Part shown: in pieces, positions 31,790 through 40,105 of the stretch
Layout of the letters: each line of letters starts with the position of its first letter
Numbering within the stretch: the stretch's first letter is position 1
NCBI GenBank assembly: GCA_963767005.1
Contig: CAVYCN010000002.1
Coordinates: 192,001-256,000 of the forward strand
Origin: an uncultured Actinomycetes bacterium
GTDB lineage: Bacteria > Actinomycetota > Thermoleophilia > UBA2241
DNA length: 64,000 bases
Reading direction: 5' to 3'
Program-made: the position numbers and the translations under genes
Notes under the pieces: model-generated
Told to the model about the DNA's origin: nothing
Databases searched by the model: none
What the model saw: only the letters and a program-made list of their open reading frames with translations

Positions 31790-33304
31790 TCAGCGCCAGC
31801 TCGTGAACCAGGCGAGGTGCGCGTAGTAGGCGTAGGGGGCCGCCTGCGAGACGATGAACGGCAGCCAGGCCACGGCCAGGCCGACCACCGCGCCCACGTA
31901 GACCCAGGCGGCGAGGGCCGGCAGGCGCATGCCGGCGGCGGCACGATTGCGGCCGGCGAGGGTGGCCGCCGCGACGACGGCGACAAGGACGGCGAGCGCC
32001 GCCAGGCGCAGCGGGGCGCCGCCGCCGGCGGCGAGGGCGACGAGTACGGCGCCGGCCAGGGCGCACAGGGCGGCGCGGCCGCGCGGCAGCGGCCGGTCGG
32101 CTACGAGGCGCGCGAGCGCGCCGGCCACCAGGATCGCGAGGAACGGGATCGCCGGCGTGAGGTAGTAGATGTAGGACTGGCGGCTCGTGGCCAGCCAGGG
32201 CAGGTAGAGGCAGGCGGCGAGCAGCGCGGGGGCGGTGCCGGCGAGGTCGCGCCGGCGGGCCGCGAGCCAGACCACGGCGACGAGGGCGACGATCGAACCC
32301 CAAAGCAGCAGCGGGTTGCCGATCGCGACGAGACCGACGACGTCGCCGTGCGGCGCGAGCGCCCAGCGATACCAGATCGGCGTCGCGTCGAAGATCCAGG
32401 TGAGCGGTCGCGAGGCCATGGTCGAGACGCCCTGCACGTTCCAGTTGAAGGTCGCCATGTAGCGCTGCAGGTGGAGCCACTGGCCGAGCGTGTGGCCGCT
32501 TGCGAAGTAGTCGGCATAGCTTGCCACGTAGACGGCGAGCGGCAGGACGACGAGGCACGCGAGGGCGGCCGCGGCGCGGCCTGCCGCGCCGCCGGCGACT
32601 TCGCCTGCCGGCCGCGCCCGCCGCTCGCGCACCACGGCCACGGCCACGATGCCGGCCGCGGCCACGAGGGCGAACAGGCCGGACCATTTGCTGGCGACCG
32701 CGCAGCCGCCGGCGAGTCCGGTGAGCACGAGCCAGCGCGCCGGACGTCTTGGGCTGCCCGACTGCACGAAGCGCAGAGCGCAGTAGATGCAGACGGCCGA
32801 CCAGAGGGCGACGAAGGGGTCGAGCACGCCGATGCGCGACTCGGTCATCAGCATAGTGTCGGCCGCGGCGAGCACGAGGGCCACGAAGGCCCAGCGCGGC
32901 GCCAGGCCGAGGCGGCGGGCGAGCGGGTAGACGAGCGCGATCAGCAGCGTCCCGGCGATGGCCGCCGGCACGCGCCAGCCCCAGGGGCCGTCGCCCAGGA
33001 CCTCGACGCCGGCGGCGATCGCCAGCGTGCCGAGCTCCGGGTGGGCGAGCGAGCGGGCCGCGCCCGGCTTCCAGGGCGCCGATCCGCGCGGTCCGAGGCC
33101 GCCGTGCACGATCACGCCGGCGTCGTGTGCGTAGTAGTGCTCGTCGAAGACGTAGGTGCGGTAGACGCCGAGGTTCACAAAACGCACGGCGGCCGAGAGG
33201 GCGACGACGACGAGCACGCCCGCGAGCAGGGCGCGCGCCGACGGCGCGCGCCCGCGCGGCGCGGCCGCCGGCGTCAGGCGGACGGGGGCCGCGGGCTCGG
33301 TCAT
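31790..33304 (-). CDS. Protein O-mannosyltransferase (GT-C/PMT family), paralog 2
   Basis: VFDEHYY, HPELG, GWR, KWSG, GNPLLLWG; ATG overlaps the stop of paralog 1. Confidence 0.85.
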   Translation of the reverse strand: MTEPAAPVRLTPAAAPRGRAPSARALLAGVLVVVALSAAVRFVNLGVYRTYVFDEHYYAHDAGVIVHGGLGPRGSAPWKPGAARSLAHPELGTLAIAAGVEVLGDGPWGWRVPAAIAGTLLIALVYPLARRLGLAPRWAFVALVLAAADTMLMTESRIGVLDPFVALWSAVCIYCALRFVQSGSPRRPARWLVLTGLAGGCAVASKWSGLFALVAAAGIVAVAVVRERRARPAGEVAGGAAGRAAAALACLVVLPLAVYVASYADYFASGHTLGQWLHLQRYMATFNWNVQGVSTMASRPLTWIFDATPIWYRWALAPHGDVVGLVAIGNPLLLWGSIVALVAVVWLAARRRDLAGTAPALLAACLYLPWLATSRQSYIYYLTPAIPFLAILVAGALARLVADRPLPRGRAALCALAGAVLVALAAGGGAPLRLAALAVLVAVVAAATLAGRNRAAAGMRLPALAAWVYVGAVVGLAVAWLPFIVSQAAPYAYYAHLAWFTSWR

Positions 33305-35022
33305 CAGATCCAGTTGCGGAACCACATGAGGTGGTAGAAGTGGGGGATCGCGATCGGCAGGTCGATGAGGATCGGCAGGAACGCGAGGCAGACGCCGGTG
33401 ACGGCGCCGGCGTAGACCCACGTGACGTAGGGCCACAGGCGTTTGGCCGGCGCCCAGAAGAACAGGCCGAGGGTGACGAGCACCGCCACGGTGATGCCGA
33501 CGGCCAGGGTCACGCGGGCGAGGTCGACCGAGAGGATGGCGGGGTCGCGCCAGAACAGCCAGTCGGCGGCCACGCCGATCTGGTACCAGAACAGCGCGAC
33601 GACCACGCAGGCGGCCGCGTAGCAGGCGGCCGCGAGCTGCCAGCGCGGCACGCGGCTCGCGGCGAGTTCGCGAAGCATGGCGGCCACGGCGAGGGCCATG
33701 AACGGCGCGACCGGCGTCATGTAGTACATGAACGACGTGCGGGTCGTGCGCAGCCAGGGCAGGTAGAGCAGGGCTACCATGATCGGCAGTACGGCGAGCT
33801 CGCGGTCGCGGCGGCGCACGGCGAGCACGACGAGGCCGACCAGGGCGGCGATGGAACCCCACCAGAGCAGCGGGTTGCCGATCGAGATGATGCCGTGCAC
33901 GCGCCCACCGATCTGCTCGTAGTAGTACCAGACGGGGCGGTAGTCGAAGATCCAGGTGTAGGCGCGCGAGGCGTAGGTGTGGGTGGCGTGGAGGCTCTCG
34001 TTGAACCACCACATCTCCTGCTGGAGCTGCCACCACTGCGAGAGCGTGTGGTGGCCGACGGCGAAGTAGTCGACGTAGCTGGCGAAGTAGAGGCCGGCTG
34101 GCAGGGCGACCAGCGACAGCGACGGCAGGCGCACCTCGGGCACGCCGACCTCGAGCGTCACGACGCCGGCGGCCGCGAGGGCGATCGCGAGCGAGACGTG
34201 CGGCAGGAGCCCGGGAGCGCGGATGCCGAGCGCGGTGAACGCGCCGCCGGCGACCACCAGGCCCACACCGGCGGCGAGCCAGGGCCAGCGCCGCCAGGCC
34301 GCGTCGGGCCGGCGCCGGTGCAGCAGGATGTAGGCGGCCGCCGCGGCGATCGCGAAGGCGCCCGACCACTTGGTGCCGAGCGCGAGGCCGCCGGCGAGGC
34401 CGCACAGCACGAGCCAGCGGGTGCGGTGCCCGCTTTGCACATAACGCAGCGCCAGGTAGACGCAGAGCACCGACCAGAAGGCGACGAAGATGTCGAGCGT
34501 GGCGATGCGCGACTGCACGATGCCGAGAAAGTCGGAGGCGGCCAGCACGAGGCCGAGCAGCGCCCAGACGGGCGGCAAGCCGAGGCGTCGGCCGATGGGG
34601 TAGACGAGGCAGAGGAGCAGCGTACCGACGATCGCCGCGACGATGCGCCAGCCGAAGGAGTGGTAGCCGAAGGCGGCCTCGCCGGCGGCGATCGCGTACT
34701 TGCCGTACTCGGGGTGCGGCCACGAGATCTCCTTGCCGGGCTCCCAGGGGTAGACGGCGGTGCCGGCGAGCGCGCCCTGCAGGATCGCGTGGGCGTCCTT
34801 GGCGTAGTAGACCTCGTCGAAGACGAGCGTGGCCGGTCGCTGGAGCTCGTACAGGCGCACCGTCGCCGACGCGATGAGGACGAGCAGGACCAGGACGACG
34901 ATCACGCCGGGGGCGCGGTCGGGACGGCGCGGCCCGTCTTCGGGAGGAGGGTCGGCGACCCGGTCGGCGACCTTTCGGGGACGCCTGGTGGGCCTGCTGC
35001 GCGGCTCTCGGGTCTTGACCAT
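33304..35022 (-). CDS. Protein O-mannosyltransferase (GT-C/PMT family), paralog 1
   Basis: VFDEVYY, HPEYGK, GWR, SRIATLD, KWSG, GNPLLWWG; TATAAT 7 nt before ATG 35022 suggests leaderless start. Confidence 0.87.
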   Translation of the reverse strand: MVKTREPRSRPTRRPRKVADRVADPPPEDGPRRPDRAPGVIVVLVLLVLIASATVRLYELQRPATLVFDEVYYAKDAHAILQGALAGTAVYPWEPGKEISWPHPEYGKYAIAAGEAAFGYHSFGWRIVAAIVGTLLLCLVYPIGRRLGLPPVWALLGLVLAASDFLGIVQSRIATLDIFVAFWSVLCVYLALRYVQSGHRTRWLVLCGLAGGLALGTKWSGAFAIAAAAAYILLHRRRPDAAWRRWPWLAAGVGLVVAGGAFTALGIRAPGLLPHVSLAIALAAAGVVTLEVGVPEVRLPSLSLVALPAGLYFASYVDYFAVGHHTLSQWWQLQQEMWWFNESLHATHTYASRAYTWIFDYRPVWYYYEQIGGRVHGIISIGNPLLWWGSIAALVGLVVLAVRRRDRELAVLPIMVALLYLPWLRTTRTSFMYYMTPVAPFMALAVAAMLRELAASRVPRWQLAAACYAAACVVVALFWYQIGVAADWLFWRDPAILSVDLARVTLAVGITVAVLVTLGLFFWAPAKRLWPYVTWVYAGAVTGVCLAFLPILIDLPIAIPHFYHLMWFRNWI

Positions 35023-35033
35023 TCGCGACATTA

Positions 35034-35089
35034 TAGTGCCGGCGAGCGACTTCGTCGTCGCCGCTCAGGCAAGCGTGACTGCGTCGGGC
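35034..35089 (+). repeat. Dispersed ~55-bp intergenic repeat, copy 1
   Basis: tagtgccggcgagcgacttcgtcgtcgccgctcaggcaagcgtgactgcgtcgggc; similar to 53824 and 57221. Confidence 0.7.
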
Positions 35090-35098
35090 GCGGTCGGC

Positions 35099-35695
35099 TC
35101 AGGCGCCGTCGGCCCGTTCGCGGGCCGGCTGTCGCGGTCCCGCTGCGGGCGCCGCCAGGGCGGCGCCGGCGCCGCGCATGCCGGCCGCGATCAGCCAGGC
35201 CAGGCCGACGGCGATCAGCAGGTCGCCCGGACTGAAGACGTTGGCGAGCGGCACGGCGTGAGGCAGGGCGAAGACGTCGCCGAGGAAGCCGAGATGCGTG
35301 GCCGCGCCGGCGACCTCGGAGTTGTTGTGGTGCCCGGTCGCCTCGACCAGGCCGGCGAGGCGCAGGGCGGCCCGGCTGGCCGGCATGTAGCCGCCGTTCA
35401 CGACGATCGTCACGGCGTTGCTGATGACCCCGGCGCCAAAGCAGACGACTGGCCGGCGGCGGATGTTCGCGGCCACGAAGGTCAGCAGGAGCGCATACGA
35501 GGCGAGGTGGAGCGCGATGATCGCGGCCCCCGGGAGGCGTTCGCCGAGCGGCGAGAAGGCGACGAGCTGCAGGGCCAGGGCGAGCACGACGAGCGCTGCG
35601 AGGCGCAGCGAGAGCCGCTCGAGGTTGCCGAGCGAGCCGCCGAGCAGCGTGCCGGCGAGCAGGCCGCCGACGACGGCTACGACGAGGACGAACAC
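35099..35695 (-). CDS. DUF5317-like membrane protein; putative signal-peptidase-II-like aspartic peptidase
   Basis: GTG start overlaps the HD-GYP stop; several TM helices; GVISN, NGGYMP, LGD and VFSPGDLLIAVG motifs. Confidence 0.72.
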   Translation of the reverse strand: MFVLVVAVVGGLLAGTLLGGSLGNLERLSLRLAALVVLALALQLVAFSPLGERLPGAAIIALHLASYALLLTFVAANIRRRPVVCFGAGVISNAVTIVVNGGYMPASRAALRLAGLVEATGHHNNSEVAGAATHLGFLGDVFALPHAVPLANVFSPGDLLIAVGLAWLIAAGMRGAGAALAAPAAGPRQPARERADGA

Positions 35696-36996
35696 GACTC
35701 GCGCGGGGTCGAAGGCAGCGCCACGAGACGGGGCTTGGCCGGGTTGCGCCAGCAGCCGATGAAGGCGTCGACGAGATCGGGGTCGAACTGGCGCCCGGCG
35801 CCGCGGCGCAGCTCGGCGAGCGCGATCTCCGACGACAGGGCCGCGCGGTACGGACGATCGGACGTCATGGCGTCGTAGGCGTCGGCGACGGTGATGATGC
35901 GCGCCCCGAGCGGGATCTGCGTGCCGGCCAGGCCGTCGGGGTAGCCACGCCCGTCCCAGCGCTCGTGATGGTGGCGGATGTAGTCGCGCCCCTTGCGGTA
36001 CATGCTGAACTGTCCGGCGAGCTCGCTGCCGTCGGCCGGATGGGCGATGATCGCGCGGCGCTCCTCTTCGGTCAGCGACGCCTGCTTGTAGAGGATGCGG
36101 TTGTCGGTCGCGATCTTGCCGAGGTCGTGCACACGCGCGGCCGAGATGACGAGGTCGATCTCTTTGCGCGGCAGGTCGAGGGCGCGGGCGATCTCGCCGG
36201 CGTACTCGGCCACCCGCAGGGAGTGGGCGTAGGTGTACTCGTCGCGCTTGTCGACGGTGTCGGCGAGCAGGGCGAGGGCGTGGTCGGTCTCGCTCTGCAG
36301 GTTGGCGTAGAGCTTGAACCCCGTGTAGATGACGAGGATCAGGAACGGGAAGTAGAGGATGTTCCAGGGGCTGTCCTGGTAGGCGAAGGCCAGCAGGGCG
36401 CCGAGCGGTGTCATCGACACGTAGAGGATGCCCATCTCGCGGAACGACGCCGTCCATTCGTGGAAGAAGGAGCGGCCCGAGAGCGTGATGATGCCGGCCA
36501 CCAGGGTGTCGTTCACGAGCAGGAAGATGGCCGCCGAGACGACGATCGCGGGCGCGTCGCGGCGCAGATCGACGGGGCCGGACACGGCGAGCAGCCGGTA
36601 GACCACGGCGGCGAGCGCCGAGGTGAGGCAGACCTGGCTGCTGTTGAACAGGACGCGGCTCCAGTGGCGCCGCGAGAGGACGAGGTCGCTGCCCACGACG
36701 CCGCCCATGGCGACGACGCTGGCGAAGGCCGGTCCGTAGAGGATGGTGGCCGCGAAGGCCACGGTGAGTGACAGCGACATGCTGCCCTCGAAGCTCGACG
36801 CGACCGCCCAGCGTTCGCTCGCGATGGCCGCGCCGAGGAGCACGACGAGGTCGGTCCAGTGGTGGCTGGGGAACGTGTGGAAGGTGGCGGCCAGGAGGAG
36901 GGCCGCGCCGGCGGTGACGCCGCCGATGTACGTTGCCACCGCAGGCGACACCCGGGTCGGGGTGGTGGGTGCCGCCTGCGGTGGCTGCTCCGTCAT
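35677..36996 (-). CDS. Membrane-integral sensor HD-GYP cyclic-dinucleotide phosphodiesterase
   Basis: About 7 N-terminal TM helices; HSLRVA, HDLGK, HHERWDGRGYPDGL, ADAYDAMTSDRPYR. Confidence 0.9.
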   Translation of the reverse strand: MTEQPPQAAPTTPTRVSPAVATYIGGVTAGAALLLAATFHTFPSHHWTDLVVLLGAAIASERWAVASSFEGSMSLSLTVAFAATILYGPAFASVVAMGGVVGSDLVLSRRHWSRVLFNSSQVCLTSALAAVVYRLLAVSGPVDLRRDAPAIVVSAAIFLLVNDTLVAGIITLSGRSFFHEWTASFREMGILYVSMTPLGALLAFAYQDSPWNILYFPFLILVIYTGFKLYANLQSETDHALALLADTVDKRDEYTYAHSLRVAEYAGEIARALDLPRKEIDLVISAARVHDLGKIATDNRILYKQASLTEEERRAIIAHPADGSELAGQFSMYRKGRDYIRHHHERWDGRGYPDGLAGTQIPLGARIITVADAYDAMTSDRPYRAALSSEIALAELRRGAGRQFDPDLVDAFIGCWRNPAKPRLVALPSTPRESCSSSS

Positions 36997-37054
36997 GATT
37001 CAGATGTCAGGCTGGCTTGCTGCCTGCGCCGGATCGACGCGTGCTACGCGCGCG

Positions 37055-37147
37055 TCAGTCCCACTTGAGCCAGGCGCCGCTCGTGACGGCGAGCGCCACG
37101 ACCAGGGCCAGCGTGATGACGACTTTGTTCGTGAGGATGCTCTTCAT
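37055..37147 (-). CDS. 30-aa signal-peptide-like precursor MKSILTNKVVITLALVVALAVTSGAWLKWD
   Basis: Translated by hand; RBS GGGAGAGGGAG; GC-rich third codon positions; paralogous to 37194-37289. Confidence 0.8.
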   Translation of the reverse strand: MKSILTNKVVITLALVVALAVTSGAWLKWD

Positions 37148-37193
37148 GTTGGATCTCCCTCTCCCAAGGTGACGAGTCGCGTGCGCCCGAGTG

Positions 37194-37289
37194 TCAGCTC
37201 CACTTCTTGAAGGCGCCGCTCGCGAGCGCGAGTGACACGATCAGCGCCACCATCGCGAGCTTAGGGTAGGTGCCTTTCAGCAACCTCAT
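37194..37289 (-). CDS. 31-aa signal-peptide-like precursor MRLLKGTYPKLAMVALIVSLALASGAFKKWS
   Basis: RBS AAGGGAGG; basic N-region, hydrophobic core, shared SGA[FW]xKW[SD] tail. Confidence 0.8.
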   Translation of the reverse strand: MRLLKGTYPKLAMVALIVSLALASGAFKKWS

Positions 37290-37385
37290 GAGCCCTCCCT
37301 TCGTGCGTCGGTCCCCACCAGACCGGTCGGGCCGTCCGTGACGTTGCCAGGCGTCGTGCGGACGGTCATGTCCGAGTGCTTCTGG

Positions 37386-37413
37386 ATATCGGCACCGGCT
37401 TTGCCGTTCTTTA
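37386..37413 (-). promoter_or_regulatory. Sigma-28 (SigD/FliA/WhiG-type) promoter for the peptide operon
   Basis: Minus strand TAAA-N16-GCCGATAT, about 95 nt upstream of the first peptide ATG. Confidence 0.72.
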
Positions 37414-37543
37414 ACTTGGAACGAGGCTCTCGTGAAAGGAACAGGCGTGCGTCGGCGCTGGCGGCCCGGCACGTCGTGTGATATCACTCTCACGGCTCGA
37501 GCGTCCGCCGCGCCGCCGGTCCGGCCGGCGGCCTCTTCCGAGC

Positions 37544-37557
37544 CGAACGTCTGTTCG
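37544..37557. promoter_or_regulatory. LexA (Cheo-box) like site
   Basis: CGAACGTCTGTTCG, same form as the lexA operators at 42477 and 42505. Confidence 0.5.
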
Positions 37558-37612
37558 TCGAGTGCACCCGAGCCGCGCCCGGGCGCGACAGGACCAAGGA
37601 GGGAACCGCAAC

Positions 37613-38251
37613 ATGACCGACCAACAGCACGAGGTCCTCGCCACGGTGAGGGACAAGATCGCCAACCCGGCGCCGCTCGGGCTCATGGCGTTCGGCATGA
37701 CCACCGTGCTGCTCAACCTGAGCAACGCCGGCCTCTTTCCGCTGAACAGCGTGGTCCTCGCCATGGGCGTCTTCTACGGCGGCGCGGCGCAAGTGATCGC
37801 CGCCCTGCAGGAGTACAAGAAGAACAACGTCTTCGGGGCGACCGCCTTCGCTTCGTACGGCTTCTTCTGGATGAGCTTCGTCGCGATCTTCGCCTTCCCG
37901 AAGTGGATCGGCATCGAGGCCGCGAGCACGACGGCGCTCGGCTGGTACCTGCTCGCCTGGGGCGTCTTCACCGGCCTCATGTTCGTCGCCACGCTGCGCA
38001 TCAACGTGAGCCTGCAGGTGGTGTTCGGCAGCCTGACGATCCTGTACGTGCTGCTCACGCTCCATTTCTGGACCGGCAACGCGATGCTCGGCAAGGTCGC
38101 CGGCTGGGAGGGCGTCTTCGTGGGCCTGTCGGCCATGTACGGCGCGATCGCCCAGATCTGGAACGAGGTCTACGGCGAGGTCGTGCTGCCGCTCGGCCAG
38201 GTCGAGCGGCCGCGCGCCGTCAAGGTGATGCCGTCGACGAGCGGCAAGTAG
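37613..38251 (+). CDS. satP: Acetate/succinate uptake channel (GPR1/FUN34/YaaH family)
   Basis: ANPAPLGL, FYGG..Q, SYGFFW; about 6 TM helices. Confidence 0.88.
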   Translation: MTDQQHEVLATVRDKIANPAPLGLMAFGMTTVLLNLSNAGLFPLNSVVLAMGVFYGGAAQVIAALQEYKKNNVFGATAFASYGFFWMSFVAIFAFPKWIGIEAASTTALGWYLLAWGVFTGLMFVATLRINVSLQVVFGSLTILYVLLTLHFWTGNAMLGKVAGWEGVFVGLSAMYGAIAQIWNEVYGEVVLPLGQVERPRAVKVMPSTSGK

Positions 38252-38272
38252 CCGGCTCCGTCACGCCGCCTC

Positions 38273-38320
38273 GACGGGGGCGGGCCGCTCCGCACGGAGC
38301 GGCCCGCCCCCGTCCCTTTT
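38273..38320 (+). terminator. Rho-independent terminator
   Basis: gacgggggcgggccgctccg..cggagcggcccgcccccgtc followed by T-tract. Confidence 0.75.
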
Positions 38321-38437
38321 CCGCGCTCGACCAGACGGCCGCCCTTGCCGGCGGCCAGGTATATCCTAGGTAGAGAGAGTGAACGCGCCGCGCCCGGTCG
38401 CGGGCGCGGCGTTCGTGCACGAGACGTGGAGGTCGCC

Positions 38438-40105
38438 ATGAGCGTCGTCGGATCGGATCGGGTCGTACGCGCGCCGCGGGGCACGCAGCTGTCGTGCCGC
38501 GGCTGGCAGCAGGAAGCCGCCCTGCGCATGCTCATGAACAACCTCGACCCCGAGGTCGCCGAGCGGCCTCAGGACCTCGTGGTCTACGGTGGCGCCGGCA
38601 AGGCGGCGCGCAGCTGGGAGGCCTTCGACGCGATCGTCGCCACCCTGCGCCGCCTGGGCGACGACGAGACGCTGCTCGTGCAGTCGGGCAAGCCGGTCGG
38701 CGTGTTCGAGACGCACCCCTGGGCGCCGCGCGTGCTGATCGCCAACGCCAACCTCGTGGGCGACTGGGCGAACTGGGACGAGTTCCGTCGCCTCGACGCT
38801 CTCGGCCTCACCATGTACGGCCAGATGACGGCCGGCTCGTGGATCTACATCGGCACGCAGGGCATCCTGCAGGGCACCTACCAGACCTTCGCCGCGGCCG
38901 GCGAGAAACACTATGGCTCAGACCTGGCAGGTCGCCTCGTGCTCACGGCCGGCCTGGGCGGCATGGGCGGCGCTCAGCCCCTGGCCGTCACCATGGCCGG
39001 CGGCGTGGCACTGTGCGTCGAGGTCGATCCCGTGCGCATCAAGCGGCGCCTCGAGACCGGCTACGTCGACCAGTCGACCGAATCCCTGGACGAAGCGCTG
39101 CGCTGGGCGGCGGCCGCCGCCAATGCCAGGCAGTCGCTCTCGATCGCCCTGCTGGGCAACGCCGCCGACGTCTACCCCGAGCTCGTGCGACGCGGCGTCG
39201 TGCCCGACCTCGTGACCGACCAGACCTCGGCGCACGACACGCTCAACGGCTACATCCCGAACGGCATGTCCTACGACGAGGCCCTCGCGCTGCGCGCGAG
39301 CGACCCGGGCGAGTACGTCAAGCGGGCCGTCGCGGCGATCGTCGAGCACGTGCAGGCGATGGTGGCGCTGCAGAGGGCGGGCTCAAACGTCTTCGACTAC
39401 GGCAACAACATCCGCGGCGAGGCTAAGGCGGCCGGCTTCGCCGACGCCTTCGCCTTCCAGGGCTTCGTGCCGCTCTACATCAGGCCGCTCTTCTGCCGCG
39501 GCAACGGTCCCTTCCGCTGGGCGGCGCTGTCGGGCGATCCGGCCGACATCACGCGCACCGACCGCGCCGTGCTCGAGACCTTCCCTGACAACGAGATGGT
39601 GACCCGCTGGATCCGCATGGCCGCCGAGAAGGTCCATTTTCAGGGGCTGCCCTGCCGCATCTGCTGGCTCGAGTACGGCGAGCGGGCGAAGATGGGCAAG
39701 GTCTTCAACGAGCTCGTGCGCTCGGGCGAGGTCAAGGCGCCGATCGTGATCGGCCGCGACCACCTCGACTCGGGCTCGGTGGCCTCGCCCTATCGCGAGA
39801 CCGAGGCCATGCGCGACGGCTCCGACGCGATCGCCGACTGGCCCATTCTGAACGCGCTCCTGAACACGGCCGCCGGCGCCTCGTGGGTGAGCTTCCACCA
39901 CGGCGGCGGCGTGGGCATCGGCAAGAGCCTGCACGCCGGCATGGTGGTCGTCGCCGACGGCACCGACATGATGGCCGAGCGCCTGCGGCGCGTGCTCACC
40001 ACCGACCCCGGCACGGGCGTGATGCGCCACGCCGACGCGGGCTATCCCGAGGCGCTCGAGGCCGCGCGTGAGTACGGCATCGACCTGCCGATGGCGGGGG
40101 CGTGA
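38438..40105 (+). CDS. hutU: Urocanate hydratase
   Basis: [43 protein letters not shown]. Confidence 0.96.

Follow-up and report, generated by a model that had tools for sequence, protein, structure and literature searches.

Within the window, i.e., the whole stretch of 64,000 nucleotides that was analyzed, four genes follow each other in the order precursor A, precursor B, a predicted MASE9-HD-GYP phosphodiesterase and a membrane protein with the domain DUF5317 (Table 1). The precursors are 46 nt apart, and 58 nt lie between the end of precursor B and the next gene. An earlier interpretation made without database searches (here termed the sequence-only reading) had described two small ORFs, each with a strong Shine-Dalgarno sequence (SD), a basic N-terminal region and a hydrophobic core. 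Both ORFs translate exactly as quoted there and both are preceded by a purine-rich SD. They carry two to three basic residues among the first 11 positions, an acidic residue at the last position at the earliest and a hydrophobic peak over 15 residues of 2.3–2.7 (Kyte-Doolittle), which agrees with the anatomy that had been proposed. Precursor A also forms the C-terminal part of a 99-aa frame beginning with GTG; the ATG with the SD is the conserved start.

Table 1. Features of the gene run and of its upstream region (positions in the window).
Feature	Position	Strand	Basis or remark
Promoter, sigma-28/WhiG-type, TAAA-N16-GCCGATA	37387..37413	-	ends 97 nt 5' of the precursor A ATG
Precursor A, 31 aa, tail ASGAFKKWS	37194..37289	-	translation, SD, selection
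Precursor B, 30 aa, tail TSGAWLKWD	37055..37147	-	translation, SD, selection
MASE9-HD-GYP, 439 aa, candidate receptor	35677..36996	-	Pfam MASE9, HD_5, catalytic motifs
DUF5317 membrane protein, 198 aa, candidate LspA-like aspartic peptidase	35099..35695	-	Pfam, conservation, LspA likeness

Across 11 cassettes from this genus, precursor A showed a pN/pS of 0.36 (0.11 in the tail) and precursor B of 0.31 (0.14 in the helix and 0.42 in the tail, where synonymous changes are few), with the third codon positions being the most variable. As purifying selection and third-position variability are both seen in these 11 cassettes, ORFs A and B are real genes and not chance frames, and the codon conservation that the sequence-only reading had suggested as a check turned out in its favor. 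Neither precursor matched Pfam or NCBIfam above the cut-off, and ten relatives yielded nothing in NCBIfam. A profile of the peptide family, applied at a threshold of at least 15 bits, retrieved 3 of the 23,265 small ORFs of the source genome, namely A, B and one further copy. Throughout the family, A and B persist as separate but related lineages, the residue two before Trp being basic in A and hydrophobic in B; the proposed paralogy holds. Both are conserved signal-peptide-like genes that likely encode precursors. A weak profile match at G000:C6:208352 has neither the Lys-Trp end nor an SD and was discarded. Nearby (G000:C6:211532-212449), four identical small-ORF matches spaced 267 bp apart form a tandem repeat, which probably lies inside a surface-protein gene.

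The third gene of the run encodes a protein matching the Pfam families MASE9 (34.8 bits, cut-off 24.3) and HD_5 (119 bits), with intact HD and HHE..DG.GYP motifs, and it is predicted to be a membrane-bound c-di-GMP phosphodiesterase. The same architecture is found in TM1467 from T. maritima and in HdgA from S. venezuelae (bioRxiv 10.1101/2021.11.05.467447; PMC6205966). According to the former source no ligand is known for MASE9, and its text contains neither the word 'peptide' nor 'DUF5317', while the authors of the Streptomyces HdgA study suspect that activating signals are missing (PMC6205966). The fourth gene (Pfam DUF5317, 96 bits) has an inferred GTG start and overlaps the end of the HD-GYP gene. 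Directly 3' of it lie two tandem protein-O-mannosyltransferase (PMT) genes (window 31790-35031, reverse strand), a synteny seen only in close relatives. As PMT genes adjoin DUF5317 in only 7/20 family regions and 8/80 wider loci, all of them from close kin, they were rejected as a part of the module. Autoinducer loci of the Agr/Com type comprise AgrB or an ABC-type processor and a histidine kinase receptor; none of these was found among the flanking genes scanned. The neighbors, i.e., MASE9-HD-GYP, DUF5317, YaaH and the two PMT genes, include no adjacent cytoplasmic TPR receptor of the RRNPP type, and the gene run contains no dedicated exporter or importer.

The peptide genes are linked to DUF5317 far beyond this locus. 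Among 20 family regions around DUF5317, 17 contain a peptide gene and 15 the pair. In GTDB genomes from Actinomycetota, Chloroflexota, Bacillota and others, a peptide scoring at least 15 bits was found at 58 of 80 DUF5317 loci (one peptide at 41, two at 17), a count that is partly circular as the profile was seeded from the same loci and 70 of the 75 matches were seeds. As a control, loci of the lipoprotein signal peptidase LspA were searched and a peptide was found in 0/31, covering 104 kb vs. 690 kb for the DUF5317 loci. DUF5317 is present in 20 of 61 relatives, and exactly these 20 yield strong peptide matches (E ≤ 2.2e-6); outside them no match was better than 2.6e-4, with the reservation that kin are not independent. 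Of 39 loci of at least 10 kb, 25 carry a c-di-GMP enzyme motif, all 25 together with a peptide; eight lack both, and six have a peptide without the motif. MASE9 itself is present in 37 of the 61 relatives, and since 17 of these have neither DUF5317 nor a strong peptide match, MASE9 in general is not a peptide sensor. Some DUF5317 genes have no peptide beside them, and stand-alone receptor genes occur as well. In Thermus thermophilus and Thermotoga maritima both DUF5317 and MASE9 are present, these being the two genes looked at. At G031:C1:16400-16492, the second precursor is interrupted by a TAG codon, possibly reflecting the loss of one paralogue.

The Lys-Trp tail, which the sequence-only reading had regarded as conserved, recurs in the peptides at the 58 loci as the core A-x-x-[KR]-W with a few more residues behind it. 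The Ala four positions before Trp is present in 84/84 peptides; this is partly due to the seed filter, and a looser filter agrees in the credible matches. The sequence-only reading had described a lipobox-like site in which Gly takes the place of Cys. The invariant residue is the Ala and not the Gly, which precedes it in 63/84 peptides (Glu in 11, Ala in 9). Because Cys occurs within the ten residues before Trp in 0/84 peptides, the members of the family are, as judged from their tails, not prolipoproteins or lipoproteins.

A set of 60 distinct tails served to compare three possible cut registers. For a cut between Ser and Gly, the residues fit a lipobox in 44/60 tails at position -3 and in 58/60 at -2, the best fit of the registers at these positions, and all three positions of [LVI][ASTVI][GAS] agree in 25/60 tails compared with 8/60 for a cut between Gly and Ala; both peptides of the window fit the Ser-Gly register. 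However, a G, A or S is found at -1 in only 27/60 and the residue at +1 differs between tails (G 44, A 8, E 7). The cut before Gly, as postulated originally, is retained as one of three registers. For a cut between Gly and Ala, the residue at -1 is G, A or S in 52/60 tails and that at +1 is Ala in 60/60, the latter partly by construction of the seed filter; as scored here, Gly occurs at +2 after Ala in 35/60, and Gly is the commonest +2 residue in the lipoprotein-like sequences of the genome (20/37). For a cut behind Ala, Ala is at -1 in 60/60 tails and a small residue at -3 in 40/60, with Pro following the Ala in 13/60. If the peptides are cut, the tails suggest the Gly-Ala bond with an about even chance, and the Ser-Gly bond and the bond behind Ala would each take about half of the remainder.

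As to the enzyme that might cut, the idea that DUF5317 resembles LspA was formed from sequence motifs ahead of the tests. LspA of S. aureus possesses the aspartate dyad D118/D136 and, among others, the conserved residues G102, N106, F132, N133, and A135 (PMC6952399). The LspA alignment was built from 21 of 31 loci, which were chosen by a motif. In DUF5317, D142 and D160 (P0003 numbering) are invariant in 147/147 representatives that were collected without a motif pattern. This set replaced the loci L044-L123, where the invariance of F-S-x-G-D had been imposed by the scan pattern and was rejected as evidence. The two Asp residues are spaced by 18 residues, as are D118 and D136 in LspA; G91, N95, F156, S157, and G159 are present, and D142 and the second-Asp motif F-S-x-G-D160 align to both LspA aspartates, at the level of the motif only. 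This pairing of both aspartates was obtained with HHalign, at a probability of 20–24% and an E-value of about 0.001 (reversed control 0.2–0.4%), and its profile-profile score was 27.3 vs. at most 17.7 in 30 shuffles. With two DUF5317 profiles, the genome's own LspA ranked first among the non-self proteins of a total of 3,625, over only 19 residues and with E-values of 0.11–0.16; in the reverse search, DUF5317 ranked 46th. An LspA profile reached at least 5 bits in 33/147 DUF5317 representatives vs. 1/147 of the reversed sequences. The cut-off of Pfam PF01252 was not reached by DUF5317; 7/76 members match it weakly (best E 0.043), and other weak Pfam matches among the 76 members were equally frequent, i.e., TgpA_N (8) and TraQ (7).

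AlphaFold models of DUF5317 had pLDDT values of 89 and 92. When the core model (residues 56-180) was compared with 48,161 chains, the LspA structure 6RYP came first, with 86 residues aligned at an rmsd of 3.0 Å and Z 5.6, and the LspA structure 5DIR fifth (Z 4.9). The Z-score of 5.6 ties with that of an unrelated chain (Z 5.3) and is below the level that the tool states as meaningful; the score alone is unremarkable, and the first rank carries weight because LspA had been named as target beforehand. The full model yielded only generic helical hairpins in VIA (best Z 7.1), with LspA outside the top 50. Foldseek found no match in the PDB at an E-value of 0.001 for the full and the core model, a PDB sequence search with the DUF5317 profile gave 0 matches at E 10, and the ESM Atlas returned no usable match for DUF5317 or the MASE9 domain. 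Shared with LspA (PF01252; PMC6952399) are the membrane location, the two Asp residues and their distance, and the motifs G-x3-N and F-[SN]-x-[GA]-D; the modeled helix-helix-hairpin-helix core is similar. In DUF5317, about 35 additional residues precede the first Asp and one more helix lies at the N-terminus, and the Asp-Arg pair and the beta-cradle between helix 1 and helix 2 of LspA have no sequence counterpart in it. The substrates of LspA are also signal-peptide-like and end in small residues (PMC6952399), whereas the A/B peptides are without Cys or lipid; the source genome has its own, separate LspA. The likeness is weak. Nevertheless, from its conserved motifs and modeled core, DUF5317 likely works like LspA, which makes it a candidate protease outside that Pfam family.

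A second precursor pair is encoded in the source genome at G000:C2:654566-654842 (forward strand; L158:6567-6843), with neither receptor nor peptidase nearby and with a degenerate sigma-28 promoter upstream. Its A copy is 52% identical to precursor A and has the same FKKW tail. Its B copy keeps WLKWD, but the invariant Ala is replaced by a stretch of seven residues, making the linker six residues longer. This extended B variant is also found in G011 and keeps WLKWD under purifying selection: 4.5 synonymous and 2.5 non-synonymous changes were counted, and the tail is free of non-synonymous ones. Stand-alone copies were observed in 16 of the 19 regions examined, from 12 genomes, without DUF5317 or MASE9 within 4 kb; the other three regions are one main cassette and two without precursor copies. 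Wherever the main cassette is known, they match the tail type of their genome, several despite diverged N-terminal regions. Their promoters are weaker, 4 of 17 scoring 10/11 and five more scoring 9. The parts of the module likely work in trans, as stand-alone precursors, stand-alone receptor genes and DUF5317 without a peptide all occur. Both tails change on a single branch leading to G000, G006 and G011, which is a long branch in the receptor tree; this is one event and therefore no proof of co-evolution of tail and receptor. At L158:1664-3271, 3.3 kb upstream of the stand-alone pair, a 535-aa ORF of the Cas1 family with a long C-terminal extension is found (Pfam 131 bits); none of the other ORFs listed there could be recognised as a cas gene.

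The promoter motif upstream of precursor A has its only match in the window at this site and was found 0 times in 100 shuffles. A sigma-28/WhiG motif agreeing at 10 or more of 11 positions precedes 14/19 family cassettes, vs. 1/570 shuffles, and the family sites lie 90–130 nt upstream with a variable spacer. The source genome contains seven strict sigma-28 sites compared with none for the reversed pattern, and its 14 relaxed sites include those before a pilin-like gene, a second MASE9-HD-GYP gene and the stand-alone precursor pair. WhiG was detected above the cut-off in the source genome together with a single-motif RsiG (59.9 bits), and RsiG is present in 55/61 relatives. Based on these motifs and proteins, the run is inferred to be transcribed by WhiG. 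At the wider loci the motif was found at only 9/58, eight of them in close kin, and the promoter is largely family-specific. No Rfam family matched between window positions 33000-39000 at E-values up to 1 and the leader shows no c-di-GMP riboswitch; a sigma-70 scan gave 0 sites, and a single terminator-like match was at chance level. For Rubrobacter, a c-di-GMP-dependent RsiG-WhiG switch was reported with promoters preceding genes of pili and of c-di-GMP enzymes (PMC8325347). In Rubrobacteria and Thermoleophilia, the (RsiG)2-(c-di-GMP)2-WhiG switch has the same promoter consensus and a single-motif RsiG, and its published targets include pilin and c-di-GMP enzyme genes, as at the sites observed here, with no peptide genes among the targets named in the text consulted (PMC8325347; bioRxiv 10.64898/2026.01.14.699351).

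The second MASE9-HD-GYP gene (L160:4835-6295; G000:C10, forward strand) has its own exact sigma-28 promoter together with a divergent one, and no peptide or DUF5317 gene nearby. That precursor B provides a ligand for this second enzyme was considered and given low weight, as 17 relatives have MASE9 proteins but no strong peptide match. Another exact sigma-28 promoter precedes a basic ORF of 65 aa without a Pfam family (L217:2331-2525). At L161:3388-7695, a protein ending in repeated YSWSR-like units adjoins a MASE9-SpoIIE phosphatase gene, with two small ORFs downstream, one of which resembles an anti-anti-sigma factor by eye.

How these parts might act together can be proposed as follows. The precursors would insert into the membrane with the N-terminus inside and the C-terminus outside, and DUF5317 would cleave each of them where the membrane helix ends on the outside, most likely at the Gly-Ala bond, at which Ala would take the place of the lipidated Cys of LspA substrates. 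The freed Trp peptides, AFKKWS and AWLKWD, would bind to MASE9 in the neighboring HD-GYP enzyme and alter the predicted c-di-GMP breakdown. If the peptides activate the enzyme, c-di-GMP would fall, RsiG would free WhiG and the operon would amplify itself. The central claim, that DUF5317 releases short Trp peptides, most likely these two, which act on MASE9, has in our estimate an even chance of being correct. The sequence-only reading had supposed two signal specificities from one locus. The two tails stay distinct throughout the family, but only one candidate receptor is adjacent, and A and B would more likely be two ligands of one receptor, as co-agonists or as agonist and antagonist, than serve two separate channels. 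A wider and more doubtful scheme, which would be a novel type of peptide signaling, would have an LspA-derived protease that does not need a lipidated Cys releasing Trp hexapeptides, a membrane c-di-GMP phosphodiesterase reading them directly and, in this actinobacterial family, RsiG-WhiG closing a quorum-like, self-amplifying loop. In it, one paralogue would be an agonist and the other an antagonist, with the stand-alone extended B variant serving as a natural inhibitor.

The enterococcal sex pheromones and their inhibitors (cCF10/iCF10) are likewise short peptides in competing pairs, originating from signal-peptide-like precursors and involving Lsp II (PMC7117660). The enterococcal peptide derives from the end of the signal helix; after its release by Lsp II and Eep it enters the cell through Opp, and PrgX senses it in the cytoplasm. 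Here, the signal would be the polar tail behind the helix, and a c-di-GMP enzyme in the membrane would sense it.

A different reading, unlikely in our view yet to be taken seriously, is that A and B stay uncut as single-span membrane microproteins and bind the MASE9-HD-GYP enzyme of the same cell, with DUF5317 as a non-catalytic partner or chaperone. MgrB, which acts on PhoQ as a small membrane regulator, is the model for such a function, being a tiny membrane protein tied to signaling as would be A and B. The strong constraint on the helix of B resembles that of a binding surface, the stand-alone B of G000 and G011 has conserved its WLKWD end without the invariant Ala, and MASE9 was proposed to bind ligands within the membrane (bioRxiv 2021.11.05.467447). 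In C. difficile, multi-copy small membrane proteins are under c-di-GMP control; the CD1980.2 family is tiny, membrane-associated and tied to c-di-GMP like A/B, and differs in its 58 aa, its riboswitch control and the lack of a linked peptidase, as far as its description allows the comparison (PMC13724677). However, uncut microproteins leave unexplained why DUF5317 has an invariant Asp pair in LspA-like motifs and why a small residue is fixed at a fixed distance from Trp. The evidence for a peptidase fits equally well if DUF5317 does cut but the cleavage is an off-switch, the intact membrane peptide being the active regulator and the system a timer within the cell instead of a signal that is released. 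All parts appear under one promoter and the run is without a dedicated exporter or importer, which is in line with such a timer. Tails that differ by clade and paralogue at just two positions after the Ala, and the common extra precursor cassettes without a receptor, fit a dosed ligand, although neither decides against the timer; the off-switch is regarded as rather improbable.

It is improbable, too, that the housekeeping signal peptidase I cuts behind Ser-Gly-Ala to yield FKKWS and WLKWD, with DUF5317 binding, modifying or degrading the product. The constant Ala at -1 and the frequent small residue at -3 suit this enzyme, but Pro at +1 blocks signal peptidase I and is found in the 13 tails mentioned above, and the tight linkage to DUF5317 would then need another reason. 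Ordinary substrates of the lipoprotein pathway or chance ORFs, for which the lipobox-like residues at -3 and -2 in the Ser-Gly register might speak, are highly improbable in view of the absence of Cys from all 84 peptides and of the purifying selection on, and conservation of, A and B.

From the comparisons of sequence, the peptide genes, DUF5317 and the c-di-GMP enzymes constitute a real conserved module, with the role as peptidase being predicted, which was not found in print. The literature search returned no description of a peptide/DUF5317/MASE9 module, no full-text hit for 'DUF5317', no account of a peptide signal leading directly to c-di-GMP and, by title and among the matches listed, no relevant paper on an LspA-like paralogue; its scope excluded most subscription journals and supplements. 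Cleavage by DUF5317 and action of the released tails on MASE9, if true, would provide the missing ligand for the MASE9 sensor family, a function for DUF5317 as a large unstudied family (6,214 representatives at 50% identity), a relative of signal peptidase II acting on non-lipidated substrates and a direct path from a peptide signal to c-di-GMP. The predicted ligands of five to seven residues and the existence of cultured carriers make the claim cheap to test. Peptide genes are found together with DUF5317 in Euzebya pacifica and Kineosporia sp. R_H_3. On the Euzebya pacifica plasmid NZ_CP031166.1 (L224:1706-1795), from a cultured strain, a family peptide ending in GAPQKWG, which is absent from the listed features, is followed by genes for a membrane GGDEF-EAL protein and for a fusion of DUF5317 with EAL.
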